A DNA stretch of 63,824 nt from a virus (lineage: Duplodnaviria > Caudoviricetes): positions 1 to 63,824 of IMG/VR virus record IMGVR_UViG_3300037119_005132, one strand, 5' to 3'. The position numbers were made by a program, and so were the translations under genes. This document shows, in pieces, positions 1 through 63,605 of this stretch (its first letter is position 1; each line of letters begins with the position of its first letter). The notes beneath the pieces were generated by a model. The model was not told the origin of the DNA, searched no databases, and saw only the letters and a list, made by a program, of their open reading frames with translations.

Positions 1-6
1 AAAGGA

Positions 7-115
7 TGCCTGGCCCCCCGCCCCCCGTTGAACCGTTTCAACAACGTGTGGGGGCCCTGTGGATAACTCTCACAGCAAGTTCCCAGGAAGCTGCGCGAAA
101 GCCGCGAAATCACGC
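7..115 (+). repeat. Left copy of 109-bp terminal direct repeat
   Basis: Identical to 63713-63821 by direct comparison. Confidence 0.93.
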
Positions 116-167
116 GGATCTCGGAGCTTTCGCGGTTCCGCGCTCTTGTGGATAACTCTGTGGATAA
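58..167 (-). promoter_or_regulatory. Three perfect DnaA boxes (TTATCCACA)
   Basis: TGTGGATAA on + at 58-66, 147-155 and 159-167 equals the canonical DnaA box on -. Confidence 0.7.
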
Positions 168-588
168 CCGCCACTCCGACGGCTCCCCCGTATGTGGCGG
201 GATGATTGATGAGCGCCGCGGCTCTCCCCCGATATGGGGAGCGAGAGAGCCGTGAGCGCGTGAACCGCTCCCCCGTGAGCACAACTCCACAGTGACCAGA
301 TACCTAGCTCCCGCTCCGCGCTCCTGTCGCGATGACATGGCGCGGCCGCTCCGCTCTGGCTCTCATCCCTTACTCACAGCGCGCCACACGGTGCGAGAGA
401 GCCGCTACGCGCTCCACAGCGCTAGCGGCTTCCACTAGCGAAGAGAGAGCCGCAGAGAGCGTCACAGCGCGCTAGGTACTCACTAGACATAGCTCCCCCA
501 GAGAGAGCCGCAGAGCACAGCACAGCGATAGCGCGTAGCGCGGAAGCTGTGCCGCTCTCGCTCTCTCACGCGGGGGAGCGGTTCACCC

Positions 589-685
589 GTAAAGCTGGCT
601 TTACATGCTCCGCAGGGAGCGCGGAAAGCCAGCTTTACAGTCCACAGCGAAGCGGCTTGCTTCGCTGTAAAGCGCGGCTTTACAG
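589..685. promoter_or_regulatory. Cluster of three GTAAAG-N4/5-CTTTAC palindromic sites upstream of gene 1
   Basis: 589-604 (N4), 623-638 (N4, one mismatch), 665-685 (CTGTAAAG-N5-CTTTACAG). Confidence 0.7.
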
Positions 686-712
686 AGTCGCCACACAAGA
701 GAGACAAGAGAC

Positions 713-1594
713 ATGACAACCGAACCGAACAACACTCCGGCCGCTCCCGCGAAGAAAGAGAGCGCGCCGGTCAGCAAGTCCGCGAAGCTCACGGCCGCAG
801 ACATTCCGGCCGCAGAGTGGGACAAGCTTGTCGCCGCTACCGGCACGAGCGTTACCGCCGTCGGAAAGACAATTCGCGCGGTAGCGGCTTTCTGTCAGAC
901 ACACTCCGCGCTCTCCGCGCGGAGCATGGCGGATTACATGAGCGCTCACTACACGTCCGGCGCGCTGTCGCACACGACGATTGCACAGCACAAGAGGTTG
1001 GATGCCACGCTCACGGAAGCCGTGGATTCCGCCATGCTGTCGGATGAGTTGTATGGGAAAGCGCGCTCGCTCTTCGCGGCCGCTTCCTATGGCTGGGAGC
1101 GCTGGGAGGCCGCGCTCAAATGGGAGAGCGTTACCGCTTCCACTCACGAGGGAGAGCGAAGCGCTCTCGCTGTGCGACTCATTACCGAGACCTACAGCGC
1201 GGCTCAGAGTGACGTGGCAATCGCGGCCGCAGAGACCGCGAAAGCCGCAGAGCGCGAAGCCGCGAAAGCGAAGCGCGAGGAAGCCGCAGAGACCGCGAAG
1301 CAAGAGCGCGCGGCCGAACTGGAAGCCGCTACCGGCGCGCTCCGGGAGGAACTGGAAGCGCTGAAAGCCACGGCCGTTACGGCCGGAGAGCCTGGCTCCT
1401 GGGAAGCGCTCACGCGGCTCTTGGGAGACTTCCTCCCTCACGCGGCGGACATGCCGCGCCACACGGGAGCCGCGCTCGCGGCTCTCATGGCGGCCGCCGG
1501 GAACAACTCTCCCGGAGACGTCGGCGCGAAGCATGGCGCGGCTCCCGCGCGGAAGCCGCAGAGCAAGAGCAAGCCGCTTCCGGTAGCGGCATGA
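713..1594 (+). CDS. Hypothetical Ala-rich coiled-coil protein (293 aa), first early gene
   Basis: Long ORF with purine-rich leader and E/A/K helical segment, followed by a hairpin. Confidence 0.8.
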   Translation: MTTEPNNTPAAPAKKESAPVSKSAKLTAADIPAAEWDKLVAATGTSVTAVGKTIRAVAAFCQTHSALSARSMADYMSAHYTSGALSHTTIAQHKRLDATLTEAVDSAMLSDELYGKARSLFAAASYGWERWEAALKWESVTASTHEGERSALAVRLITETYSAAQSDVAIAAAETAKAAEREAAKAKREEAAETAKQERAAELEAATGALREELEALKATAVTAGEPGSWEALTRLLGDFLPHAADMPRHTGAALAALMAAAGNNSPGDVGAKHGAAPARKPQSKSKPLPVAA

Positions 1595-13911: not shown

Positions 13912-14150
13912 CCCAGTCGAATGCGGCGCATGTCCTCTGGGTCATGGGCATGGAGGGTGGCGTCCAGCCCGGCAGCTTCGTCGAGAAGCTGATCGAGGCG
14001 ATGGTCGTCGCCGACACGGAGAACCTCGCGCGGCTGAGTCAAGGGTTCGAGGGCCTGACCGCCGCGCTGTCCGTGTACAAGAAGCTCGAGGGTGGCGTGG
14101 CCATCCTGCAGGGCATCGCCGCCGGCCGGCCATACGTCGGGGAGGGGTGA
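13854..14150 (+). CDS. Hypothetical protein (98 aa)
   Basis: RBS AAGGAGG; PGSF..KLIEA...AD..N..RL. Confidence 0.75.
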   Translation: MSNVRKGQSTEQTIYIDRVTQSNAAHVLWVMGMEGGVQPGSFVEKLIEAMVVADTENLARLSQGFEGLTAALSVYKKLEGGVAILQGIAAGRPYVGEG

Positions 14151-14683
14151 TGGTCCGCCCTCACCTGCACGTGGACTGGCCCAAGGCTGTCGCCCTGGCG
14201 GCGGCGGCGGAGGGCGAGTGGGTACTGGTCGGCAACGACGTCTCGGCGAACACGCTGAACACCGTCTACCGCCGCGAGAACCTGGTGCTCCGTGAGGCTG
14301 GCCGCATGGAGGCCAGGATGCCCGAGACCTACGGCGACCCACCCCGCGGTGACCTCTGGCTCCGGTCGGTCACCGACTGGAAGCCACGCCGTACCGTGGG
14401 CGACGCCGTCGTGAAGCAGCTGCGGATGCCGCGCACGCTCAAGCTGCAGGTGCATCGCTTCGCCCGATCGCAGAGCATCTCCGTCTCCGCCCTAGCGGAC
14501 AAGTGCCTCGCCCGCATCGCCCGCCAGGGGCGACGTTACGAGGATCCCGAGGCAACCGTCATCGCGATCAACGTCTCGACGAGGAAGTGGGAGCGGGCGA
14601 TGGCACGGGCCGAGGCAGATGGCTTCGCGCTGGCAGTCGCTCTACGCGAGGAGCTTCTGTACGAAGCGCGCCGACGCCGGTGA
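14147..14683 (+). CDS. Putative ribbon-helix-helix DNA-binding protein (178 aa)
   Basis: QLRMPRTLKLQV...SISVSAL RHH-like pattern, apparently duplicated. Confidence 0.6.
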   Translation: MMVRPHLHVDWPKAVALAAAAEGEWVLVGNDVSANTLNTVYRRENLVLREAGRMEARMPETYGDPPRGDLWLRSVTDWKPRRTVGDAVVKQLRMPRTLKLQVHRFARSQSISVSALADKCLARIARQGRRYEDPEATVIAINVSTRKWERAMARAEADGFALAVALREELLYEARRRR

Positions 14684-14784: not shown

Positions 14785-14893
14785 CGTGGATCGTGACCCG
14801 CAGGGGTACGATCGGAAGCATTCTGGGCCTCGAGTGGGAGCTTAGCATTACCCCCCTCTTGAGGCGTATTTCGTTATGCCCAAGGAGGGCTCA

Positions 14894-15280
14894 ATGACCA
14901 TACCCACCACCGCTCAACTGGCGGCCGCCGACGCCGCCGTCTCTGCGTATCAGCAGGGCTACAGCATGGGACGTGAGGCCGGCATCGCCGAGGCCAACGT
15001 CCAGATCGAGTGTCTCGAGTTGCTGGTCGACCACTGGTACTACGTCGCGAACAACCCGACCGCCGTCGCCGAGGAGCGCAAGCGCGACCTCTCGTACATC
15101 GAGCTCCGCGAAGCGCGTGCCGAGCGACAGGCGAAGCACCGCGAGTGGGACGAGAACGAGCAGCAGATGTTCGACCAGGCCCGCACCATGATCGACCAGG
15201 GTCACAGCGACCGCACCATCGCTGTGACCCTCGGTCTGTTCCTGCCGCTCGTCGCGAACCTGCGGTCCGGCGCCCTGTGA
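14894..15280 (+). CDS. Hypothetical protein with C-terminal HTH-like motif (128 aa)
   Basis: RBS AAGGAGG; GHSDRTIAVTLG. Confidence 0.7.
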   Translation: MTIPTTAQLAAADAAVSAYQQGYSMGREAGIAEANVQIECLELLVDHWYYVANNPTAVAEERKRDLSYIELREARAERQAKHREWDENEQQMFDQARTMIDQGHSDRTIAVTLGLFLPLVANLRSGAL

Positions 15281-16614
15281 GCGCCGAGCCCAACGGGTGG
15301 CCCGAGGTTCTCGGTCCCCCGGCAGGAGCCCTGCCTCATCGCGACAACCAAGACCTCCGAGACTCCTGGTCTCACCCCGACAACCAGCAGAAGCAGGCAC
15401 CCGCTCGCTCGCTGTCGCTCCGCTCGCTCGCCGACGCCGAGTCGAAGAAGACGCGCTTCCTCTGGGAGGGCATGATCCCGCAGTCGGCAGTCACCATCTG
15501 CGCCGGACGCGGTGGCGTGGCCAAGTCCACGTTCGCGATCTGGCTCGGTGGACAGTTGAACCAGGGCATCCTGCGCGGCGAGCTCTACGCTCAGCCGACC
15601 TCCGTGCTGTACGTCAGCCACGAGGACTCGCTGGAAGAGGTCGTGCTGCCCCGAGTGGATGCCAACGACGCCGACCGGACGCTGTTCTACTCGCTCGGCA
15701 TTGAGTCGAAAGAGGTCGGCGGCATCACCGTGCCGCGGCTCCCGGAGGATCTGCCGCTGATCCGGCAGGCCATCGAGGAGACCGACGCCAAGCTGCTGAT
15801 CATCGACCCGATCACGTCGACCCTCTCCGGTGGTGACAACGACCGGATGGCCGACGTCCGGCAGGTGATGGACCCGCTCAATGCGATGGCCGCCGAGCTC
15901 GGCGTGAGCGTCATCGGGATCGCCCACTTCCGCAAGGGCGGCGGCTCCCAGTCCGACATGATCTCCGGCTCTCACGCCTGGCGTGATGCCGCGCGGTGCG
16001 TCATCCTCTTCGCCCGAGACGAGGAGGCGGACTGCACGGTCATCACGCTCGAGAAGATCAACTCCGGCCAGGCCGGGAAGAGCTTCAAGTACCACCTCGA
16101 CATCGTCCAGCAGCTGACCGATGAGGGCACCTTCACGGATGTCGGCAAGGTCGTCTGGGAGGGCGAGTCCACCGCTTCGGTCGGAGACATCATCAACAAC
16201 GAACAGGAACGCTCGCGCCAGGGGAGCACGGCGAACGAACTCCTCGAGTACATGCGCTCGTTCAAGGGCCGGGCCGTCAAGGGCGAGGACATCGTTAAGC
16301 ACTTCGCTGTCGACGGCGTCAAGCCGGCGACGGTGAGGCAGAACCTCGGCCGCATGGTCACCCGAGGTCTGCTGACGAAGCCCGCCTACGGATGGTTCGC
16401 CGCAGTGATGCCGCCCGACGAAGAAGCCTCACGCGCGCGTGGGGGTGTCATAGGTGTCACACCTGTAGAACTTGCAGAAAGTGTGACAGGTACGACAGGT
16501 GTGACCCCCCCACGCGCGCGAGACAACGCCTCCCTCTGTCGCATTTGCGGCTATCCCCTCGCCGACGTAGTGATCGCCAGCGGCGAGCGGGTCCACCCCA
16601 CCTGCGATCGCTAG
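15277..16614 (+). CDS. RepA-like AAA ATPase/replicative helicase (445 aa)
   Basis: Walker A GRGGVAKST, Walker B LLIIDP, H.RK, GS.AW; C-terminal wHTH-like region. Confidence 0.88.
   Translation: MSAEPNGWPEVLGPPAGALPHRDNQDLRDSWSHPDNQQKQAPARSLSLRSLADAESKKTRFLWEGMIPQSAVTICAGRGGVAKSTFAIWLGGQLNQGILRGELYAQPTSVLYVSHEDSLEEVVLPRVDANDADRTLFYSLGIESKEVGGITVPRLPEDLPLIRQAIEETDAKLLIIDPITSTLSGGDNDRMADVRQVMDPLNAMAAELGVSVIGIAHFRKGGGSQSDMISGSHAWRDAARCVILFARDEEADCTVITLEKINSGQAGKSFKYHLDIVQQLTDEGTFTDVGKVVWEGESTASVGDIINNEQERSRQGSTANELLEYMRSFKGRAVKGEDIVKHFAVDGVKPATVRQNLGRMVTRGLLTKPAYGWFAAVMPPDEEASRARGGVIGVTPVELAESVTGTTGVTPPRARDNASLCRICGYPLADVVIASGERVHPTCDR
16431..16520. repeat. Iteron-like TGTCAC/GTGACA repeats in helicase 3' end (possible origin)
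   Basis: GGGGGTGTCA..GGTGTCACACCTGT..GTGTGACAGGT..ACAGGTGTGACCCCCC flanked by ACGCGCGCG. Confidence 0.5.
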
Positions 16615-17738: not shown

Positions 17739-18308
17739 ATGGGATTCGTCTCGCACATCGTCGGCAACACCACTGCTGACGCCGAGCTCCGCTACACGCA
17801 GAGCGGGCTCCCGGTCGCGAGCTTCACGGTCGCCGTGAACGACCGGAAGTTCAACCGCCAGACCAACGAGTGGGAGGACGGCGAGCCCACGTTCGTGCGC
17901 TGCTCCGCCTGGCGCGAGCTCGCCGAGCACGTCGCGGCCACGCTCACCAAGGGCACCCGCGTGATGGTCAGCGGCAAGGTCTCGATGCAGGAGTTCGAGA
18001 AGAAAGAGGGCGGCACCGGCGCCTCGCTCGAGATGCAGGTCGACGAGATCGGCCCGTCGCTGCGCTACGCCACCGCCGTCGTCACCAGGTCTGCGCCGAA
18101 GCAGCAGGGTGCGCCCCAGCAGGGCGCACCGCAGGGCTACGGCCAGCAGACGCCTCCCGGGTACGGCCAGCAGCAGCCGCAGCAGTGGCAGCAGCCGCAG
18201 CAGGGTGCGCCCGGAGGGTGGCCCGCGCAGCAGCCGCAGCAGGGCGCCCCTCGTCAGCCCGACGCCTGGTCGCAGCCCGGCGCCTACTCAGATGACCAGC
18301 CGTTCTGA
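17739..18308 (+). CDS. ssb: Single-stranded DNA-binding protein
   Basis: Actinobacterial SSB OB-fold (ELRYT, VASFTVA, GPSLRYA); Q/G/P linker; DDQPF tail. Confidence 0.97.
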   Translation: MGFVSHIVGNTTADAELRYTQSGLPVASFTVAVNDRKFNRQTNEWEDGEPTFVRCSAWRELAEHVAATLTKGTRVMVSGKVSMQEFEKKEGGTGASLEMQVDEIGPSLRYATAVVTRSAPKQQGAPQQGAPQGYGQQTPPGYGQQQPQQWQQPQQGAPGGWPAQQPQQGAPRQPDAWSQPGAYSDDQPF

Positions 18309-18424
18309 TGGCCGACGACGTCAGCTACCACGAGTACGAGAGTCCTCGTGGGGAGTCCGCGCCGGACAAGCCGTGCGCAGTCTGCGGCGCTGACCGCAAC
18401 GCGCTGATCCACTCGGTCGGCTGA
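18308..18424 (+). CDS. Tiny Zn-finger-like protein (38 aa)
   Basis: TGATG coupling at both ends; H...CAVCG...H. Confidence 0.6.
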   Translation: MADDVSYHEYESPRGESAPDKPCAVCGADRNALIHSVG

Positions 18425-18891
18425 TGACGCTCGCGCTACGGATCGAGGCGTACGGCGTGCCCGAGTCTCAGGGCTCGGCACGTGCGTTCGTGCAGGGTGG
18501 CAAGGCCATCGTGACTTCCGCCAACGTGAAGCTCCGGCCGTGGCGCGAGACCGTGACCTGGGCCGCGCGCGACGCGATCGTCGCGAACGACTGGGTCACG
18601 CTCGGGTCGCGGGTTCCAGTGAGGTGCGAACTCACCTTCTGGATCCCGCGGCCCTTGAGTGCGCCGAAGACGCGGGACGTCTTGCCCTCCTGGGGGAAGG
18701 ACGTGGACAAGATGATCCGCTCCGTCTTCGACTCGCTCACCAATGCGGGGGTCTGGGTCGACGATTCCCAGGTCTGCGCCGGAGCGTTCAACAAGCGCTT
18801 CGTCGTCGGCCCAGACCTCCCCAAGATCTACGTCGAGCGCTTCCACCGGACAGCGCCCGGCGTCTCCCTACGAATCGAGACCATCGAATGA
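18424..18891 (+). CDS. rusA: RusA-like Holliday junction resolvase
   Basis: P.SQGS, D.DK..R...DSLT..G.W.DDSQV. Confidence 0.92.
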   Translation: MTLALRIEAYGVPESQGSARAFVQGGKAIVTSANVKLRPWRETVTWAARDAIVANDWVTLGSRVPVRCELTFWIPRPLSAPKTRDVLPSWGKDVDKMIRSVFDSLTNAGVWVDDSQVCAGAFNKRFVVGPDLPKIYVERFHRTAPGVSLRIETIE

Positions 18892-19472
18892 GGACTGACA
18901 CCAGAACGGAGCTCGTCGACCTGATCCGCGCCAATCCCACGGCGGAGGTCGTCCTCCCGGACGAGCTCTACAGCGACCGTCACAACGGCGTGCGCACCGA
19001 GATCGAGGGGATCAAGGTGATGCTGCACCGCTGGCTGTATGACCAGCTGAACCCGACCTCCCCGCTCGGCCGTGACCGACTGCGCCGCGACCCCGCGCAC
19101 GACCCGCGCAACGTGAACCCGCTGCTCATGCGACGGGTCGCGCCGAACGACCGACTGCCGACCGACCGCTGCCGTAAAGGGCACCTTTACAGCGAGGTCG
19201 GCGAGCTCCCCGAGGGTCGCGGCGACAAGCGGCGATGTCGGCAGTGCTGGCGAGAATCGAGGGATCGGGTGAACCAGGCCGAGCGCACGGAGTACCCCAG
19301 CGCGAACCCCGTGCACGCCAACCGCGACAAGACCCACTGCCCGAACGGGCACGAGTACACCCCCGAGAACACGCTCCGCTGGGCGGCCGACAAGGGCCGC
19401 CGGCGGTGCCGCATCTGTGAGACCACCCGCGCGAAGGCGCGCTGGAACGAGAGGAAGAACGATGGCAACTAG
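18888..19472 (+). CDS. Degenerate HNH-like protein with two Zn ribbons (194 aa)
   Basis: LHRWLY..NVNP; CRKGH..RCRQC and CPNGHEYTPENT..RCRIC. Confidence 0.7.
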   Translation: MRTDTRTELVDLIRANPTAEVVLPDELYSDRHNGVRTEIEGIKVMLHRWLYDQLNPTSPLGRDRLRRDPAHDPRNVNPLLMRRVAPNDRLPTDRCRKGHLYSEVGELPEGRGDKRRCRQCWRESRDRVNQAERTEYPSANPVHANRDKTHCPNGHEYTPENTLRWAADKGRRRCRICETTRAKARWNERKNDGN

Positions 19473-20589
19473 GAAGAAGCCTGTGGAGCAGCCCGCTCCC
19501 GAGCCCGAAGAGGTACAGGAAGACCCGCACGCCGACGCTGAGACCGGCGAGATCATCGACGCCGAGACGGAGGACATCCCGTTCGAGGAGCACGAGACGC
19601 CGCCGCGGCCGACGAGCATGATGACCGCGCTGCCGCGCACGTCGGACATGACGCAGTGGAGCGACGAGCAGGCCGCCCTGCTCGACGCCGCCGGCCTCGT
19701 TCAGCGGAAGAACGGGCAGGCTCCGAACTGGGCACCGCGCGCCACCGTCGCGGCGTTCCTGCAGCAGTGCGCACGCACCGGGCTCGACCCGATCGCTCGC
19801 CAGATCTACTGCATCGAGCGCGCCGGGAAGTGGCAGATCCAGATCTCCATCGACGGCGCACGCCTGGTCGCTCAGCGCTCCGGTGAGTACCGCGGCCAGA
19901 CCCCGGCGCAGTGGACCGGCGACGGCCGCGAGTGGTTCGACGTGTGGCTGTTCGAGACCCCGCCTGCCGCCGCTCGTGTCGGCGTCTACCGCGAGGGCTT
20001 CGCCGAGCCGCTGTACGCCGTCGCCCGCTGGTCGAGCTACGCGGTCTACACCAAGGACTGGAAGACGAAGCAGGAGAAGCTCTCGTCGATGTGGCAGAAG
20101 ATGCCCGACGTGATGCTGAGCAAGGTCGCCGAGATGCTGGCGCTGCGCAAGGCGTTCCCGCAGGATCTGTCCGGCCTCTACTCCACCGAGGAGATGGAGC
20201 AGGCAGGCCCGGGTGCGGGCGTGCAGGCCGCACCCGAGCCCGCGAAGACGGCGGTCGCGCCGGTCGTCGCCAGCCCGCAGGCGCCCAGCCGGGAGCCCGA
20301 GGGTGACGCCCGCTGGGTGCCGTGGAAGAAGCTCATCGACAGCGCGCCCGCCGAGAAGCTGGCCGAGGTCCGCGAGAACGCGGCGCACGCCGGCATCCTC
20401 AACCTGCAGGTGCCCGGCGCGGACTACCGGGTGCTCGACTACATCGTCGCCCGCGAGCTTGAGCTCAAGGGCGAGGGGCGAGCGAAGCCCGCATCCGTGC
20501 AGGAGCGCCTGGCGCAGGGTCTCAAGACCGACGACAGCTACGACCGTGCCGCCGCCGAGGCCGAGCAGTTCCCGGGAGCCCCCGAGTGA
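19462..20589 (+). CDS. bet: RecT/Bet-like single-strand annealing recombinase
   Basis: TGLDP..RQIY, SIDGARLVAQRSG, W.KMP.VML.KVAE..ALRKAFP. Confidence 0.93.
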   Translation: MATRKKPVEQPAPEPEEVQEDPHADAETGEIIDAETEDIPFEEHETPPRPTSMMTALPRTSDMTQWSDEQAALLDAAGLVQRKNGQAPNWAPRATVAAFLQQCARTGLDPIARQIYCIERAGKWQIQISIDGARLVAQRSGEYRGQTPAQWTGDGREWFDVWLFETPPAAARVGVYREGFAEPLYAVARWSSYAVYTKDWKTKQEKLSSMWQKMPDVMLSKVAEMLALRKAFPQDLSGLYSTEEMEQAGPGAGVQAAPEPAKTAVAPVVASPQAPSREPEGDARWVPWKKLIDSAPAEKLAEVRENAAHAGILNLQVPGADYRVLDYIVARELELKGEGRAKPASVQERLAQGLKTDDSYDRAAAEAEQFPGAPE

Positions 20590-20906
20590 GCGCGCTGCCC
20601 GAGGACATCACGCCCGAGGTGCTCGCCGCCCACCGTGGCGGCGTCGCAGCCGCCGGGAACCTCATCGACCTCACGGTGTCGTTCATGCGGCACGAGGCAG
20701 ACTCCCCCGAGGAGCGGATTGCCGAGGTCGAGCTCGCCTCCGGCGTGATGAGCACCGTCGACCTCCCCGAGGAGGTCGTGGCGAACGTCATCATGTCGCT
20801 CTGCGCGCTGATCGTCGAGGTCGCCGAGCCTGGCCCTGTGGTGGCCTGGTTCGAGCGGCAGTACGACCGACTCAACGAAGCTGAGGGGTCAGCTGATGCC
20901 AGTTGA
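20586..20906 (+). CDS. Hypothetical protein (106 aa)
   Basis: GTGA overlap. Confidence 0.75.
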   Translation: MSALPEDITPEVLAAHRGGVAAAGNLIDLTVSFMRHEADSPEERIAEVELASGVMSTVDLPEEVVANVIMSLCALIVEVAEPGPVVAWFERQYDRLNEAEGSADAS

Positions 20907-21855
20907 ACTGGTGCGGGACGAGGAGCTTGAAGCGAAGCTCCTGGGTGCCGTCATTGCGGAGGAACGCGCACGTCCGCGCTCGCTTCAACGCGAGGTGGGC
21001 CCGAGCGAGATTGGTGGCTGCCTGGAACTCATGCGCTCCAAGGTCTTCGAGCCGGCGGAGGACGACGCACCGGAGGAGCACTGGCACGTCGCCGCCCAGA
21101 TCGGAACGGTCATGGGCGACGCGCTGGAAGACATCTTCGGTCGTCGGTTGGATGCGCTCACTCAACAGCGCATCACGGCGAGCCTGGAAGAGCTCGGGAT
21201 CTCGATCTCGGGCTCGGCGGATGTGATCTTCATCGACGACAACACGATCATCGACCTCAAGTCGACGGCGGCGATGGGGTCAGTCTTCTACGAGGGCCCG
21301 AAGCTCAGCTACTACATCCAGATCGCGATCTACGTGATGGGTGCAGTGCAGGCAGGCATCCTCGAGCCCGGCGCCGAGGGGCGGATCGTCTACTACGACC
21401 GGACCGGCCAGCAGCAGTCGTTCGTGGCCGTCGTGGTGTCATGGGAGGCCATCCAGAACTTCTTCGACCTCGCTCAGCAGCGCATCCGCACCGTGATGCA
21501 CGCTCAGGAGGTCTGGGAGGACACCGGTGACACCCACCTGATCCACGACCTCCGCGAGTACACGCCGAGCTACTGCTTCTCGGCCAAGGTCGAGTGCCCG
21601 CGGCGCTTCAAGTGCTGGGGTGGCACCGACTGGGCTCCGGTGGAGATCCTCACGGATCCGAACCACCTGTCGGCCGCGCGTCGCTACATCGAGGGGCGCC
21701 GGCTGGCGCAGATCGGCGCGGCGATGAAAGACGAGGCCAAGGGAGAGCTCGAGGGGATCAACGGCACGTTCGAGGAGGGCATCATGATCGGCCGCGACAA
21801 GCGCGGGTACATCTCGGTCGTCGAGACCAAGGTAGAGACGGAGACAAAGGCATGA
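20896..21855 (+). CDS. Cas4-like PD-(D/E)xK exonuclease
   Basis: GPSEIGGC, GSAD, IIDLKS, Q..IY, C-terminal Cys cluster; lies near recombinase. Confidence 0.85.
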   Translation: MPVELVRDEELEAKLLGAVIAEERARPRSLQREVGPSEIGGCLELMRSKVFEPAEDDAPEEHWHVAAQIGTVMGDALEDIFGRRLDALTQQRITASLEELGISISGSADVIFIDDNTIIDLKSTAAMGSVFYEGPKLSYYIQIAIYVMGAVQAGILEPGAEGRIVYYDRTGQQQSFVAVVVSWEAIQNFFDLAQQRIRTVMHAQEVWEDTGDTHLIHDLREYTPSYCFSAKVECPRRFKCWGGTDWAPVEILTDPNHLSAARRYIEGRRLAQIGAAMKDEAKGELEGINGTFEEGIMIGRDKRGYISVVETKVETETKA

Positions 21856-30239: not shown

Positions 30240-33200
30240 TCAGTTCGGGTCCATGATCGCGGTCCAGAACACCGTGCCCGACGACGAGCCCGCCGCCGTC
30301 CAGTTCGCGATGATCGCGGTGAAGCCGTCCACGGTGGGGACAGCACCCGAGCCGTTGAACGCGAGGTTCAGACGCGACTGGGTGGCAACCATCGACACCG
30401 TGGGCGCACGCTGGAACAGCCCAGCCGGGAACGTCACCGCCTGGGTAATGTTCGAGTTCGAGGCGATCGCGGCGATCGCGAACGACCCGGTCTGAACGAT
30501 CGGGGCGCCCCATGACCACGGCGACCAGGTGGCGCCGCTGTCCGCCGATGTGCGCCGCCAGGTGCGCATGTCCTGCACGCCTGCGGCCTGGTAGGCGCGC
30601 TGGAACTCCTGCCGAACGTAGACGCCGCTGACCTGCACGATGAGCACGCCCGCCGCCGTGCTCGTCGGGCTGTTGGCGGCGGACGGCGCGTTGTAGAAGC
30701 CCGGGGTGAGAGCGGTGTTGCAGTCCGCGGTCGTGCGGGCGAACTTCTCCTCGAGCGTGCGCGGCGTGATGATGCGACTATGGTCGGTGCGCGCCAGCAT
30801 CTCGGCGCTGGTCGCGATCTCCGCGATGCCGGCCACCGTCTCCGTCGCCTGCACGTCGGCGGGCGGGATCACGATGGCAGCGATGCGCTGTGCCAACTTG
30901 AGCGGCGTGACGATGCGCAGATCATCGGTGCCCGCCGAGACCTCGGCTGTCGTCGCAAGCTCCGCCTTGCCAGCGACGGTCTCTGTCGCTTGGACCTCGG
31001 CGGGAGCCGCGGCAATGACAGCGGCGTTGAAGTCGGTGATCTGTGACGCGGTGTGCGTATGGCTCAGCGGCGCCTTGGTGTCGGCCACGCCCTTGAGGCC
31101 GAGCGGCGTGACGATGCGCGTGTGGTCCGTGCCCGCCGCGGCCTCCGCCACCGTCGCGAGCTCGGCGGCACCCTTCACGGTCTCCGAGGCATCCGCCACC
31201 GAGCCGGGAGGGATCGCCGCGATGCGCTGCTGCAGCTTGAGCGGCGTCACGAAGCGGAGGTCATCCGTACCCGTCGTCACCTCCGCAGTGGTGGCGATCT
31301 CCGCGATGCCGGCCGCGGTCTCGGTCGCCTGCACCGGGCCAGCTGCGGGTGCGGCCCACTTCACGCCGCCCTGCGCCACCGCGGAGTCGGCGGTGAGTAC
31401 CTGCCCGTTCGCGCCGACAGGGATCAGCGTGACCCCATCGGCGTCGGCCATTCCGACGAGTATCGAGCCCGTGCTGACGTAGTGCGAGAAGGGGACGTAG
31501 TTCTGCAGCCGCTGGTCGAGGACGAACTTGACTCCGGCAGGGTGGACAGCGCGCGTGCCATCGGTGCCGGTTGCTGTCTCTGCAGCCGTCGCGAGCTCGA
31601 CGATGCCCTGCACGGTCTCGGATGCGATTGGAGGCGTGTACACCGGGATCGCGGCGATCCGTTGCGCGAGTTTGAGCGGGGTGACGATGCGGAGGTCGTC
31701 GGTCCCCGCCGTGGTCTCGGCCTGAGTGGCGATCTCGGCCTTGCCGGCGACCGTCTCGGTGGCCTGCACCTCGGCAGGCGCCGCCGCGAGGGCGGCGGCG
31801 TTGAAGTCGGTGATCTGACTGGCGGTGTGCGTGTGCGCCAGCGGCGCCTTCGTGTCACCCACTGCCTTGACGCCCGCCGGAGTCACGGCCCGAACCGTAT
31901 CGACCCCGGCGGTCGCCTCGGCCACGGTAGCCAGTTCGACCTTGCCCTGCACCGTCTCACTCGCCAGGGGAACCGCAGCGGGGACAGCAGTGGCGAAGTC
32001 AGTGATCTGGCTCGCGGTATGGGTATGGCTCAGCGGGGCGAGGCCATCGGTGACGCCCTTGAGTTTGAGCGGGGTGACGATCCGCGCATCGTCTGTTCCG
32101 GTCGTCACCTCCGCAGTCGTTGCGATCTCGGCGATGCCGGCGACGGTCTCCGTAGCCGCGCTCGGCGCTGGCGGGACGAACGCGGCGAGCCGCTGCTGCA
32201 GCTTGAGGGGCGTGACCGCCCGCTGATCATCGGTGCCGGTGGTCACCTCGGCCTGCGTGGCAAGCTCGATCTTGCCCTGGCCGGACTCCGTGGCCTGCGG
32301 GGTGGCGGCGAACACCGCCGATGCGAAGTTCGTGATGTCGGTCGACACGTGGGTGTGACCGGTCGGCGAGTAGCCGGCAAGCTTCTGCTGCAGTTTCAGC
32401 GGCGACACGATGCGAGCGTCATCCGTGCCCGTGGTCGTCTCCGCCTGAGTGGCGATCTCGGCGACGCCCTTCACCGTCTCCGTCGCGTCTGCGACCGTGC
32501 CCGGAGGAATCGCAGCGATCCGCTGAGCGAGCTTGAGGGGCGTGACGAACCGGAGGTCGTCCGTGCCGGTGGTCACCTCTGCGGCGGTCGCGATCTCCGC
32601 CTTGCCCTGCACGGTCTCGGATGCCGCGGGGACGGCGGCCGGGACCGCGGTCGCAAAGTCGCTGATCTGCGAGGACGTGTGCGTGTGGCTCGTCGGGGCC
32701 TTGCCGTCGAGCAGTGGCTTGAGTCCGGCGGGGTGCACGGCGCGCGTCGCATCCGTGCCAGTGGCCGTCTCCGCCGCGGTGGCGAGTTCGACGATGCCCT
32801 GTACCGTCTCGCTCGCGACCGGGATGGTGGGCGTGAATCCGGCGAGCCGGGATGCCAGCTTCTGCGGCGTGACGATGCGGCTATCGTCGGTGCCGGCGTT
32901 GGTCTCCGCCTGCGTCGCGACCTCCGCGATACCCTTCACGGACTCGGAGGCATCGACCGGCGTCCAGCCGCCGCCGCTGCCGGCGCCGCCGACGTCCACC
33001 CACGACGACCACACCAGGGTGACCGGATCGAACACCCGGCGCCAGGTGTTCGACACCGTCGAGACGATCTGCGACGGCGAGATGAGCTCCTGCACGATGC
33101 GGCCGACGACGCTGCCGCCCTCGATGGTGAACACATGGCCGACGAAGTTGGCCAGCGTGGGCCCGTTCAACGCCTGCGAGCCCCAGTAGAAGCCAGGCTC

Positions 33201-33425
33201 GGTGGCGTCATCCCAGTCGGCGACCTCCATCGAGTCGATCGAGATCGTGTACGGCTCGTCGAACGTGCCGAGACCGTCCATCTCGAGCCCGGAGCCAGCG
33301 GTCAGGTAGTCCGACAGGTCGATGACGTTCGCCTGCCCTACCGCCCGCTCCAACGCGACGATGCGCTTGCGAACCTCGGTCAGCACATCTTCGAGGGAGC
33401 GTGGGGCATCCCCCACGCCGGTCAT
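30240..33425 (-). CDS. Tail fibre with 13 AT.AE...GTDD.R.VTP repeats (1061 aa)
   Basis: T4 gp12/gp34-like repeats, five HTH (HxH) motifs, two knob-like segments. Confidence 0.88.
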   Translation of the reverse strand: MTGVGDAPRSLEDVLTEVRKRIVALERAVGQANVIDLSDYLTAGSGLEMDGLGTFDEPYTISIDSMEVADWDDATEPGFYWGSQALNGPTLANFVGHVFTIEGGSVVGRIVQELISPSQIVSTVSNTWRRVFDPVTLVWSSWVDVGGAGSGGGWTPVDASESVKGIAEVATQAETNAGTDDSRIVTPQKLASRLAGFTPTIPVASETVQGIVELATAAETATGTDATRAVHPAGLKPLLDGKAPTSHTHTSSQISDFATAVPAAVPAASETVQGKAEIATAAEVTTGTDDLRFVTPLKLAQRIAAIPPGTVADATETVKGVAEIATQAETTTGTDDARIVSPLKLQQKLAGYSPTGHTHVSTDITNFASAVFAATPQATESGQGKIELATQAEVTTGTDDQRAVTPLKLQQRLAAFVPPAPSAATETVAGIAEIATTAEVTTGTDDARIVTPLKLKGVTDGLAPLSHTHTASQITDFATAVPAAVPLASETVQGKVELATVAEATAGVDTVRAVTPAGVKAVGDTKAPLAHTHTASQITDFNAAALAAAPAEVQATETVAGKAEIATQAETTAGTDDLRIVTPLKLAQRIAAIPVYTPPIASETVQGIVELATAAETATGTDGTRAVHPAGVKFVLDQRLQNYVPFSHYVSTGSILVGMADADGVTLIPVGANGQVLTADSAVAQGGVKWAAPAAGPVQATETAAGIAEIATTAEVTTGTDDLRFVTPLKLQQRIAAIPPGSVADASETVKGAAELATVAEAAAGTDHTRIVTPLGLKGVADTKAPLSHTHTASQITDFNAAVIAAAPAEVQATETVAGKAELATTAEVSAGTDDLRIVTPLKLAQRIAAIVIPPADVQATETVAGIAEIATSAEMLARTDHSRIITPRTLEEKFARTTADCNTALTPGFYNAPSAANSPTSTAAGVLIVQVSGVYVRQEFQRAYQAAGVQDMRTWRRTSADSGATWSPWSWGAPIVQTGSFAIAAIASNSNITQAVTFPAGLFQRAPTVSMVATQSRLNLAFNGSGAVPTVDGFTAIIANWTAAGSSSGTVFWTAIMDPN

Positions 33426-38213: not shown

Positions 38214-41200
38214 CTACGGCACTGTCACGGCGAGGGCGTCGGCGTACAGCCGGACCTTCGCGCCTGTCGACCAGCTGGTGACCCGCTGCAGCACCCGGAC
38301 TACGGCGATCGTGGCGCCCACCGGCGGCGCGATCGACTTCGCCGAGACCGCGCCAGATCCGCCGGCGATGATGCCCAGACCGACAGTGCTGATCAGGCCG
38401 CTCGCGCCGCGCCACTCTACCTGCACCTCGAGCGCGCCGAGCACGACAGTTCCGGACTCGATCTCACCCTGACCCCAGATATTGAACGAGTAGCGCTCGC
38501 CGGCAGTGACGGCGTGCGCCAGCTGCACGCCCTGCTGCATCGCGATCCAGCCGGGGACGGCGCTGGTGTTCGGTGCCGTCCAGGTGGTCTTCACCGACTG
38601 CGCTCCTACCGAGGCGGTCTCGGTGGACACGGCCGCGGTGGACACTCCGCCGCTGGTGGTGGTGGTGTCGTAGATCGCCTGCCAGCCCAGCGCGCTCCCC
38701 TCGGCCGAGGGGTTCATCGAGTAGTTGCGCGCCACCTCGACGGTGCCAGTGCCGAGTCCGGCGCTCGGGTAGTTCACGAGGTTCACCGGGTCGTCCTGCA
38801 CGATCGACGGCGACGCCGGGTCGAGCGTCACCTCCTCGGGGAGCGTGAAGACGAACGGCACTCCGGCGGCGAGGGTGAACTGCACGATGTAGCCGTAGAC
38901 GTCCCCGCGGCGCATCTTCTGCTGCACGATCGGACCGCTGATCGCGACGACGCCGTGCAGCACGCGGACCAGCCCCTCCACGTACGCGGCGTAGGCGACC
39001 GGATCGGGCACCTCGACGCGACTGCCGAACTGCGCCCGCGACGGCGAGGCATCCGCCGGCCCGGTCCAGTCGTACTCGGTGGGCGGGTCTTCGGTGTCGA
39101 CGCCGTAGCCATCGAAGTAGGTGCCGTCGTACTCGCCTTCGACGAGGATCAGCGAGTCCCACCACACGTCGCCGCCGCCGGATGACGCGCCGTTGTAGAG
39201 CCGGATGAACGCCTCGGTGGCATCGGCCGGCGTGGTGAAGGTGTGGATCAGCCGGGTCACGCCCGCCGCGTTCGGCGCGGCGGCCGCGCTCACCTCGGTG
39301 TAGCCGGGCAACGCCGCGCTCTTCACGAACGAAACCATCTTGCGCGCCCGCGGGTTGAGTACGCCGGTCTGCGCGGCGGTGAGCCGGATGTTCGCCGCCA
39401 CGGTGTACGTCTTGCCGGGCTGCATCTGCAGCCGCATCCCGCCGGTGTCGCCACCAGGGGAGGCGTAGCTGTCGGTGCTGCTGGTGAGCGGGATGATCCG
39501 CATCGACTTGGTGCGGTCAGTGGCCCAGTGCGTCGAGGAGACCCGCTTGGATGCCGCGCCGCCGCTGTAGCTGTTCACGTCGGCGGCGTTCAGCGCGGTG
39601 GTGGAGGCGTTCGCGGTGCCGGTCCACACCGGGAAGAAGTCCGGGTCGTACAGGTACGATCGGGAGGCGTGCGCAGTGCCCTCCCAGGCCGCGGCGTACG
39701 GCGCGATCGGGACAGTGCCGTCGAAGTAGGGGTTGAGCACCGAGCCGAACTCCACCATCGCGGCGGCGGCGTCCAGCCAGTCGCCCACGGTGTACTTGCC
39801 GACGAAGTCCGAGCGCAGATCCACCCGCACCTTCGCCGCGCCGGCGGGAGCCGTCGCGGTGACGGTGTAGCGCCGCCAGGTGCCGTCGACCACGGATGCC
39901 GCACCCACGACGATCCCACCGATCATGGCGTTGGTTGCAGTGAACCAGTAGACAGCGGCATAGGCGGTAGCTGCGCCCAGGCTGGCCTGCGCGCGACCGT
40001 AGATCGAGTGCGTCACGGTCTGCCCCGGCGTCACGGCAGGCTGTGCGACTGTGCCCGAGTAGTGGTTGATCGTGCCGCTGCCGCCGAGGGTCTGCACCGT
40101 CAGCCGGCGGTAGAACGGCGAGACCCCGGCGGGGCCGTCGGTGCTCGAGATCGCGGACTGCGCGGTGCCGCCGTTGTCCACGCCACCCTGCCACCCCGCC
40201 TGCAAGGTCGGGTAGGGCTGCAGGTTCCGGCGCACCCGGCTGCGGGTGGCGCCGTCGAAGTACGGCCCGTTGTAGACGCCCTCGACGACGAGCAGGTCGT
40301 CGAACCACAGCGACTCACCAATGGTGTTGTGCGCAGGAAGACGAAGGCGAACAAAGCCCGCCGCGGCAGTCACGGTGAACGTCAGCCGCCACTCCTGGAC
40401 GCCCGCGAAGGTGGTCGAGATGACGCCACTCACGTCGATGGTCGAACCACCGCCCGCCCACACGCCGAGTGGCACGGTGGGCGTGGAGGCGGCGGAGAGC
40501 GTCCGCGACTTCACGAGGACGGTGTACGTCTTCCCAACCTCGACCGGCAGGGTCGAGAAGGCGTAGTTGGTCGTGCCGGTGCGGTTCAGCACGCGAGCAC
40601 TCTGCGTGCCGGACGAAGCCCATTCGGTGGACTTGAGGGAGACTGCGGCACCCCCCGCCGACTCATTGCTGACGCCCGGCACCGCTGTGCCGATCTGCAC
40701 GCTCGGAGTGGCGTTCGCCGCCCCGGTCCAGGCGTAGGAGTAGTCCCCTGCGGCGATCGTCGAGCCGTCGAAGTAGGAGCCGAGGACTGGGGAGAGTTCC
40801 ACCAGCAGGCCGGTCGCGTCGAGCGTCTCCCCGATGAGCCAGTTCGGACCCGTGTCCGGGTCGATGTTTGCGCCCAGGAATGCCGCACCCGCCGGGGCTG
40901 TCACCGTGTGGGAGATGCGCACCCAGGCGCCAGACGTGAGCGAGACGATCGGAGAGACCGAGTTCGTGATCGGGTTGCCAGCGGCGTCCCGCCAGAACAC
41001 CTGAATATTCGCGGTACGGGCAGCGCCTACCCAAGTGGCGCGCATCCATGCCGAGATGGTGAACACCTGCGCCGCGACGACGGGATACCCCAGGACGCTC
41101 ACGCCAGTCGGGGCGTCACTCTGCGCGAGCGTGAACCCGGTGTCCCCCGCTCCTCCACTGGCCGACCAGGTCTTGCGCTGGTAGGAGTTCGGGCCGCCAG

Positions 41201-60123: not shown

Positions 60124-60356
60124 CAGTCATGTCCAATCGCCACGAGCATTTCGGTCACCGTCACGTCGCTCGGATCCAGGTTCGGCTCGGCCACGCACGC
60201 CGCGCGCACCGCCGCCCAGTACAGCACCCGGCGCGGGAGTGCCCATGCGATCTTGATCGCCAGCCACTCGTCCCAGGTCCGACGCCACCGCTCGCGCAGC
60301 GCCATGCCCGGCAGGGTCCAGATCGTCGTCAGCTTCACGAGTCCCACCGCCCCCAT
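60123..60356 (-). CDS. Hypothetical protein (~77 aa)
   Basis: IAW.LPRR..YWA motif; start uncertain. Confidence 0.65.
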   Translation of the reverse strand: MGAVGLVKLTTIWTLPGMALRERWRRTWDEWLAIKIAWALPRRVLYWAAVRAACVAEPNLDPSDVTVTEMLVAIGHD

Positions 60357-61555
60357 GACTCGACGCTGCTGGCGGCTCGATCGACACCCTCCTTGAAGCC
60401 GTTCAGGAACGCGCGGCGGAGGCGGTCCTCGATTGGCTCCTCGGCCTGGGTCGTCTCGCCCTCGCCCTCCTCGCCCCAGCCGTACTCGTCGCGCACCTTG
60501 TCGTGCCACTCGTGCAGGTCAGGGCTGAACGCGCTCTCCTCAGTGAGATCCTGGTGCTCGACACCGTAGGTAGCGGCGATGTGCTCCTCAGTCTGCGACG
60601 ACAGCTGGCGGATCACCGCCTCGCGCTCCTCCTGCGCGCGGCGCACCTTGATCCGTTCGAGGTCGCGGTCCCACATCACCGCCGAGTCGTGGTCGCCGCC
60701 AGCGCAGATGGCGCGCGAGCGTGGGGTGTAGTGCGTGTGCTCCTCCTGGTCGGTGACCCGCTCGTCCGCGGCGCCCTCGAGCGCGAGCCGCACCAGTTCG
60801 CGGAGCGCGTCGACCCGCACCTGGACCGCACCATCGGGCCCGGCCTCGTTCGCGACCTCGGCGATCCGGCCGATGTCCTCGACGGTGAGGTGGAACGGCT
60901 CATCAGTGGCGACGGCAGGCACCTCGACGGTCGCCTTGATCACCGGCTCGTCCCACGGACTGGGGCGGAGGTCGGTCGCGACGTTGAACGGGCTGCCGAG
61001 CAGCACGTTCGCCACCGTGGTGAGCGTGTCGGCGTCCAGGCTGAGGTGCCCGAGGTAGCGCACCCGCTCTGCGACGTACTCGCGCCACTCCTGGGCCAGC
61101 ACCTCCCAGTCCTCCGGCGCCTCATCCTCCGGCTCGGTCTCGCCGGTCCAGGTGTCGCTGACGATCCCGCCCTCCGGGACCGTGCCGTCGAAGTACTGCG
61201 GCTCCTCCTCGGGCAGGATGAGCACGCCGAACTTCTGGCCCTGCTCGGTCTGCTGGGCCTCGATGATCTCGTGGGGCATCGGGTTGCCGCGCAGGATCAC
61301 CGGGATCCGCGAGAACTGGTACGCCGGCGCCGGGTTCGGCACCTCGTTCACGCGCTCGGTGATCGGCGGCGGGGTGAGGTCGAACTTGTCGCGGTCAGTC
61401 ATGGTGGTCTCCTCGTCGGTCTGCCACTCGGTGCAGTCGGGGTCGCTGCACCAGCAGCCCCAGTGGTGGAAGTTGTCGCCGAACGCCGGGCCGTTGCCGT
61501 CGACCGTCAGGCCGATGCGCTGGTGCTTCGGGATCGGGATCATCGGGGTGCTCAT
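60335..61555 (-). CDS. Acidic mosaic hypothetical protein (406 aa)
   Basis: ATGA overlap at 61555; second strong start at 61402. Confidence 0.75.
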   Translation of the reverse strand: MSTPMIPIPKHQRIGLTVDGNGPAFGDNFHHWGCWCSDPDCTEWQTDEETTMTDRDKFDLTPPPITERVNEVPNPAPAYQFSRIPVILRGNPMPHEIIEAQQTEQGQKFGVLILPEEEPQYFDGTVPEGGIVSDTWTGETEPEDEAPEDWEVLAQEWREYVAERVRYLGHLSLDADTLTTVANVLLGSPFNVATDLRPSPWDEPVIKATVEVPAVATDEPFHLTVEDIGRIAEVANEAGPDGAVQVRVDALRELVRLALEGAADERVTDQEEHTHYTPRSRAICAGGDHDSAVMWDRDLERIKVRRAQEEREAVIRQLSSQTEEHIAATYGVEHQDLTEESAFSPDLHEWHDKVRDEYGWGEEGEGETTQAEEPIEDRLRRAFLNGFKEGVDRAASSVESWGRWDS

Positions 61556-61707
61556 GACAGCCTCTCGATCAGTCGGGTCAGGTGCGCGGTCTCCGCGTCG
61601 GTGTGCAGGTGCTCGTCGCGCGCGGACCGCAGCGCCGTGACGATGACGGCGCAGTCGCGCTCGGTGAAGACGACGAGGGTCTGGGCGCGCGGCGCGACGT
61701 CGGTCAT
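61552..61707 (-). CDS. Hypothetical protein (51 aa)
   Basis: RBS GGAGGTG. Confidence 0.7.
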   Translation of the reverse strand: MTDVAPRAQTLVVFTERDCAVIVTALRSARDEHLHTDAETAHLTRLIERLS

Positions 61708-62057
61708 GCGGTCCACCTCCGGGTCTCGATACCCGCGTTCTCGGCGAGGTCGGCGCACATCGTCGCGCCACGCGACTCGGCGCGGATGAACGCGATGCAC
61801 AGGTCGACGCCGGAGGCCACCATCTCAGCGTTGCGACGGAAGCCCGCGGGCTTGCCGTAGCGCTTCCAGTCCGCCGGGTGCGCCTCGGCTTCGCCGCCCC
61901 AGCTGGTGTGGATCTCCGCCGCGATCAGGTCGGCGCCTCTCGCGCCGCCGTGCACCAGGGTGAACGGGCCAACCTCGCCGGCGACGACCGCCAGCGCTGC
62001 GGCGATGACGGGAGCGTCGTCCCAGTCCCGCGACCCGGTGACGAGCACGCGCGTCAT
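61704..62057 (-). CDS. SLOG-family (DUF2493/DprA-like) protein (117 aa)
   Basis: RVLVTGSRDW, VHGGARGAD, PADW..YG..AG..RN.EM, SRG. Confidence 0.88.
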   Translation of the reverse strand: MTRVLVTGSRDWDDAPVIAAALAVVAGEVGPFTLVHGGARGADLIAAEIHTSWGGEAEAHPADWKRYGKPAGFRRNAEMVASGVDLCIAFIRAESRGATMCADLAENAGIETRRWTA

Positions 62058-62648: not shown

Positions 62649-62920
62649 CACTCGCCCCGTCCCGGCCGCCAGCCAATGCGGGCCGCCGTCTTGAACTCGC
62701 TGAGACGTGTCAGCGCGACCTGGCGCTCCTCGCCGGATGCCGCGAGCTTGTGCCAGATCCGCGTCGCCTGCGCGCGGTCGCCGTCGAGGAGCGCCGTGCC
62801 GTAGCCGATGGCCCAGGCGCGGTCGATGGCGGGGTGATGCTCAAGACCCTGCGCGACGAACGCCGCGAACCAGTCCGCGACGGGGAACATCGCCTGGCGG
62901 ATGACGATCGGCCTCACCAC
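62648..62920 (-). CDS. Hypothetical protein (~90 aa)
   Basis: Coupled to neighbours. Confidence 0.65.
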   Translation of the reverse strand: MVRPIVIRQAMFPVADWFAAFVAQGLEHHPAIDRAWAIGYGTALLDGDRAQATRIWHKLAASGEERQVALTRLSEFKTAARIGWRPGRGE

Positions 62921-63363
62921 GCGGGGGCCTCCGTCGACTCAAGCGCCTCGGCCCAGTCTGCCTTCGAGCCGCGGAAGCCGTAGTGCGGATTCACGTACCA
63001 AGCCGTCGAGGAGATCTTGAACAGGAAGCGCCGCGCGCGCAGGTCGCGGATCGTCTTGTAGAGGAAGTTCCGGTCGAGGTTCAGCGCCAGCGCCATCTCC
63101 GTCGCCGTCATGCGCGCCCACGCTTGCTCCGGCGGGTTGTAGTCGCTGAGGACGAGCGCCAGTACGCGCTGCTCCGTCTGGTTCAGCGACTTCGGGGCCT
63201 TCTGAGCCGCCTCCATCTCGAGCATCACGTACATGACCTCTCCCTTCCCTGTCCGGCGCCGGCGCCGGGTCGGCTCCGGCCTGGTGTCGTAGATCTCGCC
63301 GTTCTCGTACACCTCCGCGACCTTGTGGCCCCGGGCCTGCCTGCTGGTCTTCGGCTCCGGCAT
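62914..63363 (-). CDS. RepL-like winged-helix DNA-binding protein (149 aa)
   Basis: RBS AGGAG; T..EMA..L.L.R..Y.TI..L; WYVNP..FRG. Confidence 0.72.
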   Translation of the reverse strand: MPEPKTSRQARGHKVAEVYENGEIYDTRPEPTRRRRRTGKGEVMYVMLEMEAAQKAPKSLNQTEQRVLALVLSDYNPPEQAWARMTATEMALALNLDRNFLYKTIRDLRARRFLFKISSTAWYVNPHYGFRGSKADWAEALESTEAPAW

Positions 63364-63401
63364 CGGGGCTCCTGATCGTAGTCGTCACATCTACGGAGTG
63401 A

Positions 63402-63415
63402 GTAGTGGCCACTAC
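63402..63415. promoter_or_regulatory. Perfect 14-bp palindrome upstream of RepL-like gene
   Basis: GTAGTGGCCACTAC overlapping a -10-like TAGCGT on -. Confidence 0.5.
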
Positions 63416-63605
63416 GCTACCTGATGTGTAGCCACTCCACCACTCTGAGAGGCACTTTGCCCTACTCCCGACTGGGATCGCGGCCCCTTGGGGGGCAGTT
63501 CTTGTATTGAGTATCTTTCTTCACCCTGTTCCCCCTCCTTGATCGTCACGGTCTTCGGTTCTTCTGCTCTTCCTCGCCATGACCCTTCGATTCCTGCCGA
63601 TGCAG

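Follow-up and report, generated by a model that had tools for sequence, protein, structure and literature searches.

Conserved DnaA-box sequences around a candidate iteron-type origin suggest use of host DnaA by a lineage of lytic actinobacteriophages

Lytic phages are usually thought to initiate replication without the host initiator. The canonical high-affinity binding site of that initiator, the DnaA box, is the 9-mer TGTGGATAA or, on the other strand, TTATCCACA, and in the oriR of P1 such boxes lie at both ends of the core. Plasmid origins carry DnaA boxes at which DnaA assists the plasmid Rep protein, and the O protein of lambda binds four iterons, as summarized in the relevant section of PMC10797057. 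For T5-like phages, the pertinent part of a bioRxiv article by Davison (10.1101/866236) describes about eight DnaA boxes, "always in pairs separated by 3 bp". These boxes occupy untranslated, repeat-rich DNA within the injection-stop (iss) region of the terminal repeat, whereas the origins map elsewhere, and the same article proposes that membrane-bound DnaA stops the injection of T5 DNA at these terminal-repeat boxes. The basal unwinding system (BUS), as outlined in PMC8287927, combines co-oriented tandem boxes, separated by a spacer of at most 3 bp, with DnaA-trios that start no more than about 16 bp away. In Bacillus subtilis, a distal box involved in looping works at 132–462 bp (PMC8287927 and PMC6669920). 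Our literature search returned no report of DnaA use or DnaA boxes for actinobacteriophages, and two papers on the Microbacterium phages of cluster EG (PMC7302621 and PMC9224216) do not mention DnaA.

The window, by which we mean the whole stretch of DNA analyzed here, is a virus record that looks complete, with a length of 63,824 bp and a G+C content of 67.5%. When both strands were searched over its full length, TGTGGATAA, the complement of the DnaA-box consensus TTATCCACA, was found as an exact match at 58–66, 147–155, 159–167, and 63764–63772, on the + strand every time. No further exact copy was present on either strand of the 63,824 bases, and tolerating one mismatch added a single site at 39242–39250. 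The Streptomyces-type box TGTGGACAA was not found in the window. The four copies compare with 0.02 expected, and none of 100 shuffled sequences contained four or more. The original prediction had listed these 9-mers in a single orientation, noticed none internally, and considered their clustering improbable; the exact search and the genome-wide count agree with it on each of these points. The extension of two boxes to a longer motif was also confirmed, as the 13-mer TGTGGATAACTCT occupies 58–70 and 147–159 (repeat family D2). The copy in the right repeat is present as described, but it adds no site: 63764–63772 lies inside a 112-nt end duplication and repeats box 1, so that the R-type 9-mer is represented by three independent exact copies, not four. 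Box 1 (58–66, +), which we call the distal box, stands singly within the end duplication. Boxes 2 and 3 (147–167, +) follow 89 bp further on as a tandem pair of perfect boxes, with a 3-bp spacer and in the same orientation as box 1.

The duplication of the window ends extends from 4 to 115 on the left and from 63710 to 63821 on the right with one mismatch; it may be a genuine terminal repeat or may have arisen as an overlap in the assembly. In independently assembled Logan contigs of three soil runs (X1–X3), possibly the source samples of the window, window position 7 runs straight into right-end sequence, and the repeat occurs once; the first six and the last three bases of the window are absent from this bridged junction. 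These contigs fit a collapsed terminal repeat as well as a circular or permuted molecule and do not tell the two apart. Because contigs of three runs bridge the junction, the window ends may not be physical ends, and the earlier description of the boxes as lying at the ends of the phage holds for relatives with defined ends (269–674 bp from the left end) but is unproven for the window. In a fourth soil run (X4), low-depth contigs cover about 40% of the sampled words of window positions 1–1500, which points to a related strain in a further sample.

The genes form two arms, a rightward one starting at 713 and a leftward one starting at 63,363, each of which reaches to about 29 kb; they therefore diverge from a single gene-free stretch across the record ends. 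This main gene-free stretch of about 1.06 kb (63364–63709 plus 4–712) contains the boxes and is rich in repeats. A perfect inverted repeat, GTTGAACCGTTTCAAC, occupies 27–42, with its second copy at 63733–63748; it is confined to the end duplication, and its two exact copies in the window compare with 0.38 expected at up to two mismatches. An iteron-like array of GAGAGAGCCG (243–510, +; repeat family D1) has copies at 243, 395, 443, and 501, spaced irregularly by 152, 48, and 58 bp, and the last three are embedded in 33-nt repeats (395–427, 443–475, and 501–533). Genome-wide, GAGAGAGCCG occurs five times, four of them in this gene-free array, with 0.76 expected. Positions 588–684, immediately before the first ORF of the + arm, contain three copies of GCTTTACA and an inverted repeat of 23 nt at 589–611/616–638 (families D4, D5, and I2). 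On the other side of the junction, the composition scan revealed a G+C hairpin (63483–63496) followed by an A+T-rich stretch (63492–63532), which is the sole stretch of at least 60% A+T in the gene-free junction (30-nt windows) and is not beside the GAGAGAGCCG repeats. Neither a promoter-prediction tool nor a scan at a score of 8 or more detected a sigma-70-like promoter in the junction, weak candidates appearing only at 7, and an Rfam scan of the window returned no RNA family. Between 63380 and 63460, just upstream of the winged-helix gene described below, there is a perfect 14-bp palindrome, GTAGTGGCCACTAC, with CCACT half-sites nearby; this region may be the operator of that gene itself.

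At the DNA level, similarity between the window and its relatives is patchy (about 77% over 6–7% of an 8-kb query). The window helicase shares 44–67% identity with its counterpart in 43 Microbacterium phage records. These belong to cluster EG (Squashvirus and Gillianvirus), whose members are lytic siphoviruses with genomes of about 62 kb and grow on M. foliorum or M. paraoxydans. Thirteen cluster EG records were taken into the box comparison. All 13 contain perfect boxes, one to three each and 27 in total, and every one of these lies 269–674 bp from the left end and on a single strand. There is no perfect box elsewhere in the approximately 62 kb, and a reversed control pattern gave no match in the 13 genomes. 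Of five Microbacterium phages from other groups, three have no box and two have one each, internal and unclustered. Direct terminal repeats of 181–209 bp are present in all 13 relatives, in agreement with the terminal repeats given for cluster EG in the genome descriptions of PMC7302621 and PMC9224216. Read in the orientation of the window, the relatives share one plan: a distal box, 286–376 bp, a tandem pair with a 3-bp spacer, 65–150 bp, and the terminal repeat. The distal box mostly begins 2 nt past the stop codon of the last left-end gene, and in one relative this site reads TTGTCCACA. The partner at the 3-bp spacing has at most one mismatch in nine relatives and two mismatches in the other four (OneinaGillian, RobinRose, Pepe25, and Marcie, as seen in the printed flanks); the weaker partner boxes include TTTTCCACA, TTCTCCACA, TCATCCACA, ATATCCACA, and TTATCCCCA. 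The flanking sequence diverges between Squash-like and Gillian-like phages, whereas the 9-mer is unchanged. The conservation among related phages that had been named as a check is thus seen in 13 of 13 genomes with diverged flanks. The sites are real, exceed chance, and are conserved in position, strand, and pairing across the lineage in a repeat-rich gene-free region. A separate scan of viral contigs with the tandem-box pattern was uninformative, since more than 118 unrelated contigs matched.

For a chromosomal comparison, 199 dnaA-flanking loci of Actinomycetota were surveyed, a sample in which no chromosome was identified as Microbacterium. Same-strand box pairs in these loci peak sharply at the 3-bp spacer, with 227 pairs versus at most 60 at any other spacer from 0 to 30. 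Most of the weak-partner variants of the relatives recur in box pairs beside dnaA in Actinomycetota. The 9-mer TTATCCACA has 158 copies in 74 of the 199 loci and TTGTCCACA 249 copies in 144; in this sample without an identified Microbacterium, the variable base of perfect TTNTCCACA is G in 249, A in 158, C in 53, and T in 40 cases. Many of the dnaA-flanking pairs listed are followed by a ..CTGTG.. motif, and in Arthrobacter loci the TTATCCACA-type pairs adjoin TGTTAATAAGGTA. The phage pair has the chromosomal design, and DnaA rather than a phage protein is therefore the likely ligand. Their conservation in 13 of 13 relatives, the chromosome-like partner variants, and the use of the commonest spacer argue that the 9-mers are genuine DnaA boxes under selection, and we regard them as very probable DnaA sites.

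Between the distal box and the pair (at about 400–600 in record coordinates), all 13 relatives carry three dyad-symmetric repeats at 33/35-bp spacing, a regular array of the kind found in iteron-type origins. By sequence, three lineage-specific classes of repeat can be told apart (GAGAACC.., GAGATGC.., and GAGAAGG..), and the repeat arms change jointly yet stay complementary, 10 of 29 predicted pairs being altered on both sides. Such covariation between lineages is expected for the sites of a phage-specific dimeric protein, and the constancy of the DnaA boxes between the same lineages is expected for the sites of a host protein. About 10–20 bp past the third repeat is the motif ATAGTA(R)(W)(W)ACAGG, which matches in 12 relatives and more loosely in the 13th and is single-copy in the four genomes, of five searched, in which it matched. 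It lies in an A+T-rich stretch (at least 57% A+T) in 11 of the 13, the exceptions being OneinaGillian and RobinRose. The order in the relatives is, in full, distal box, three dyad repeats, ATAGTA..ACAGG, tandem boxes, and terminal repeat. The 18-bp inverted repeat GATCAACCNNGGTTGATC, described for cluster EG in the corresponding passages of PMC7302621 and PMC9224216, is distinct from the three dyad repeats and was not found in the window. When ORFs of the 13 relatives were compared with the repeat-sequence classes (after removal of ORFs shorter than 45 aa and of those with a GC3 under 0.72), none covaried with the phylogenetically scattered ACC class, and the classes of the helicase C terminus do not fit those of the repeats. 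All 13 relatives have a consensus TTGACA-16-TAnnnT promoter within the terminal repeat of about 200 bp. In OneinaGillian, 5 nt separate the end of this promoter from the first ATG of the non-structural arm, which gives the transcript a leaderless appearance. The promoter copy at the left end points off the genome end.

Among the approximately 105 GC3-supported ORFs of the window, 29 were scanned with Pfam, and 10 of these 29 also with PHROGs. Matches at or above the Pfam cutoffs were obtained for an AAA_25/DnaB-like helicase, a single-strand DNA-binding protein (SSB), RecT, RusA, and HNH, and an M23 endolysin was also among the scanned ORFs. The helicase is encoded at 15010–16614 (+), with its real start probably near 15385, and the SSB at 17739–18308 (+); both had been named at the outset and were recovered. 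A RecT-family recombinase (19417–20589, +) is accompanied by RusA (18424–18891) and a weak PDDEXK-like match below the cutoff (20896–21855; Pfam E 0.0039). The statement that the phage has no recognizable polymerase or primase agrees with the absence of either among the 29 Pfam-scanned ORFs, 10 of them with PHROGs. It also agrees with the build of the helicase, which matches the helicase part only of the relatives' "DNA primase/helicase"; the primase part of the latter, a zinc-finger/Toprim region of about 237 aa at the N terminus, has no counterpart in the window when compared with Lonelysoil gene 67. In the window, the place of the primase part is filled by two ORFs (14147–14683 and 14876–15280) with no family match. 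A 1061-aa ORF in the tail-gene region (30240–33425, −) contains many diverged internal repeats of 108–185 nt (D1–D4, 30747–32957).

Two genes border the gene-free region. The first ORF of the + arm (713–1594, 293 aa) starts 546 bp downstream of the tandem boxes and has no family match. The first gene of the − arm (62914–63363) encodes a winged-helix DNA-binding protein of 149 aa, which had been called RepL-like. This label is partly supported: RepL is matched by 19 of the 39 members of its family (40 representatives) on which Pfam was run, but not by the protein itself. MarR_2 is matched by 25 members, Phage_rep_O by 6, and Rep3_N by 4, and the best Pfam match of the protein itself is a subthreshold one to Rep3_N (E 0.009). 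A first structure model from three sequences was poor (pLDDT 51.5), whereas a second model from 39 sequences was good (pLDDT 88.8). A Foldseek search of the PDB with the model yielded generic winged-helix regulators only (E 0.0037 or higher), and a profile search of PDB sequences led to regulators too. The 149-aa protein is a candidate initiator or regulator. In the phage collection, tblastn gave no match for 713–1594, 62914–63363, or a 478-aa ORF at 60335–61771, and no closer relatives of the window with the gene of the 149-aa protein were found among viral or metagenome contigs.

Here, we propose that the region may be an iteron-type phage origin with host DnaA as a helper, a reading to which we assign a probability of roughly 45%. 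A phage-specific DNA-binding protein would occupy the repeated dyad sites, which adjoin an easily melted A+T-rich stretch, and host DnaA would bind one single box and one tandem pair, both of which flank the dyad-repeat core. Bound there, DnaA might help to open the DNA or might bring the helicase and the remaining host replisome. The phage would need the host replisome because no polymerase was recognized among the scanned ORFs and the window helicase is without a primase part. DnaA binding, the identity of the region as an origin, and the role of DnaA there are all points that we infer from sequence comparison. The conserved layout of the relatives, with dyad repeats, A+T-rich DNA, and DnaA boxes on both sides, is by analogy that of an iteron origin. 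The window supports the proposal with similar parts in another layout, namely four copies of GAGAGAGCCG, one A+T-rich stretch, and a winged-helix gene at the border. Three functions had been offered originally for the boxes, docking as in T5 not among them; the comparative anatomy favors an origin, and titration and promoter control less so.

Several observations argue against an origin. A canonical DnaA-trio unwinding element was not found on the expected side of the pair in the window or the relatives. The unwinding side was calibrated on Arthrobacter origins, in which trio-like A+T-rich DNA begins about 5 nt past the 3′ side of the TTATCCACA pair; in the phages, the 3′ side of the pair is G+C-rich, and the A+T-rich stretch is 115–235 bp off. 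Since the A+T-rich DNA is distant from the pair, DnaA would be a helper and not the sole opener. In the window, moreover, the repeats are downstream of the pair and irregular, and the A+T-rich stretch is on the other side. With a helicase of their own, and in the relatives also a primase, the phages have no obvious need for DnaA, and the covariation with repeat class yields no candidate for the iteron-binding protein. In T5-like phages, the origins have been mapped to sites other than the 3-bp pairs near the terminal repeat, according to the part of 10.1101/866236 that deals with them. Finally, TTGTCCACA is commoner than TTATCCACA in the 199 actinomycetotal loci, among which no Microbacterium was identified.

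These points leave room for other readings, which differ in whether DnaA binds at all and in what it does there. The 9-mer could be the site of a phage protein, such as the small terminase subunit or a regulator near the terminal repeat, with a coincidental likeness to the DnaA box, given that the sites adjoin the packaging ends in the relatives and that two copies in the window share the longer 13-mer TGTGGATAACTCT. An exact match to a 9-bp consensus is unlikely by chance, however, conservation across lineages does not extend into the flanks beyond the 9-mer, the variants (including the swap to TTGTCCACA) are also chromosomal, and the 3-bp pairing is the chromosomal pairing; we consider this explanation the least credible of all. 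More weight, although still on the unlikely side, is due to a terminal docking function like that of T5, in which partly membrane-bound DnaA would hold, pause, or protect the entering or packaged end while replication starts elsewhere. The tandem boxes lie 65–150 bp from the 181–209 bp terminal repeat in all 13 relatives, both T5-like and cluster EG phages are lytic with terminal repeats, and the T5-like boxes occur in 3-bp pairs in repeat-rich untranslated terminal-repeat DNA, with origins elsewhere (10.1101/866236, in the section on these boxes). The role in T5 is itself a proposal, however, and the boxes here are three in one orientation, not eight in inverted repeats. If entry stopped after 270–675 bp, all of it gene-free, the cell would not have received a single gene, and the promoter for the first non-structural gene of the relatives is in the repeat of the other end, which suggests that the other end acts first. 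The window boxes, moreover, may not lie at physical ends, as contigs bridge the junction, and the boxes frame an iteron-like core.

DnaA might instead regulate phage promoters or block read-through, tying early expression to the replication state of the host. Tandem pairs with a 3-bp spacer also occur about 110–130 bp upstream of dnaA in Arthrobacter, the pair of the relatives lies 160–250 bp upstream of the TTGACA-16-TAnnnT promoter in the terminal repeat in 13 of 13 genomes, and the distal box, 2 nt past the stop of the last left-end gene in most relatives, is a possible roadblock site. Nevertheless, 160–250 bp is long for direct repression and exists only in joined or circular genomes. In the window, there is no sigma-70-like promoter in the junction at a score of 8 or more, and the first ORF begins 546 bp downstream. 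Control of transcription, which we think rather improbable, would also leave unexplained why dyad repeats and an A+T-rich motif lie between the boxes. As a sponge, in the manner of datA, replicating phage genomes would draw DnaA off oriC, halt host initiation, and free the host replisome. The perfect consensus, conservation, and clustering of the boxes are compatible with this function, as is a dependence on the host polymerase, none having been recognized among the scanned ORFs of the phage. Two or three boxes per genome are few for a sponge, and titration would not need position, strand, and pairing to be kept so strictly with respect to other conserved elements, which makes the sponge very improbable.

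The presence of perfect DnaA boxes in every examined member of the lineage suggests a dependence on, or a use of, host DnaA, and taken together, the sequence comparisons suggest that these lytic phages make use of this host protein, most probably to initiate replication of their own DNA. A broader claim, which we put forward tentatively, is that a polymerase-less lytic lineage, comprising cluster EG and its soil relative, fires its origin with host DnaA bound on both sides of a lambda-like iteron core. If so, phage DNA synthesis would be coupled to the DnaA-ATP state of the host, and the 3-bp box pair of T5 would become an instance of a general exploitation of DnaA by tailed phages, found independently in two bacterial phyla. 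An origin here would be the first one mapped for this phage group and would provide a defined cis element for phage-dependent vectors. If the region is not an origin, it would be the second independent case, after T5, of DnaA boxes by a phage terminal repeat, and the feature would look general. The lineage is easily testable, as the relatives grow on a harmless laboratory strain of Microbacterium foliorum, the element is shorter than 500 bp, and it lends itself to clear mutants.

Compared with the BUS, the phages share the co-oriented tandem pair with a spacer of at most 3 bp, often composed of a strong and a weaker box, and a single distal box some hundred bp off. The pair is formed by 147–155 and 159–167 in the window and by partners with at most one mismatch in nine and with two mismatches in four of the 13 relatives. 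The two differ on the 3′ side of TTATCCACA, where three or more trios would be expected within about 16 bp; this DNA is G+C-rich in the window and the relatives, the A+T-rich DNA is 115–235 bp from the phage pair, and TAGTAGTAA-like triplets occur about 115 bp from the pair in the relatives. The likeness to the T5 iss region, as far as its published description is drawn on here, extends to the lytic lifestyle, the terminal repeats, the 3-bp pairs of consensus and variant boxes, and the conservation across a phage group; as in T5, the pairs of the relatives are in untranslated DNA by the terminal repeat, 65–150 bp from it. The terminal repeat is about 10 kb long in T5 and about 200 bp here, and the host phylum and the phage lineage differ. 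The iss region has about eight boxes in inverted-repeat arms with a 52-bp spacer and is associated with a two-step injection, whereas the window and the relatives have two or three boxes, all co-oriented, and are not known to inject in two steps. A further resemblance is to the iteron origins (RK2, F, R6K, pSC101, and P1, together with the lambda iterons), in which repeats bound by the replicon's own protein lie by an A+T-rich stretch with consensus DnaA boxes nearby. Those replicons differ from the present phages, which are lytic actinobacteriophages with short terminal repeats and for which an initiator is postulated; the repeats of the relatives are dyad-symmetric and number three, and those of the window number four and are irregularly spaced. 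DnaA boxes in iteron origins and DnaA boxes beside the T5 terminal repeat were already known, and what the present comparison adds to them is the actinobacteriophage case.
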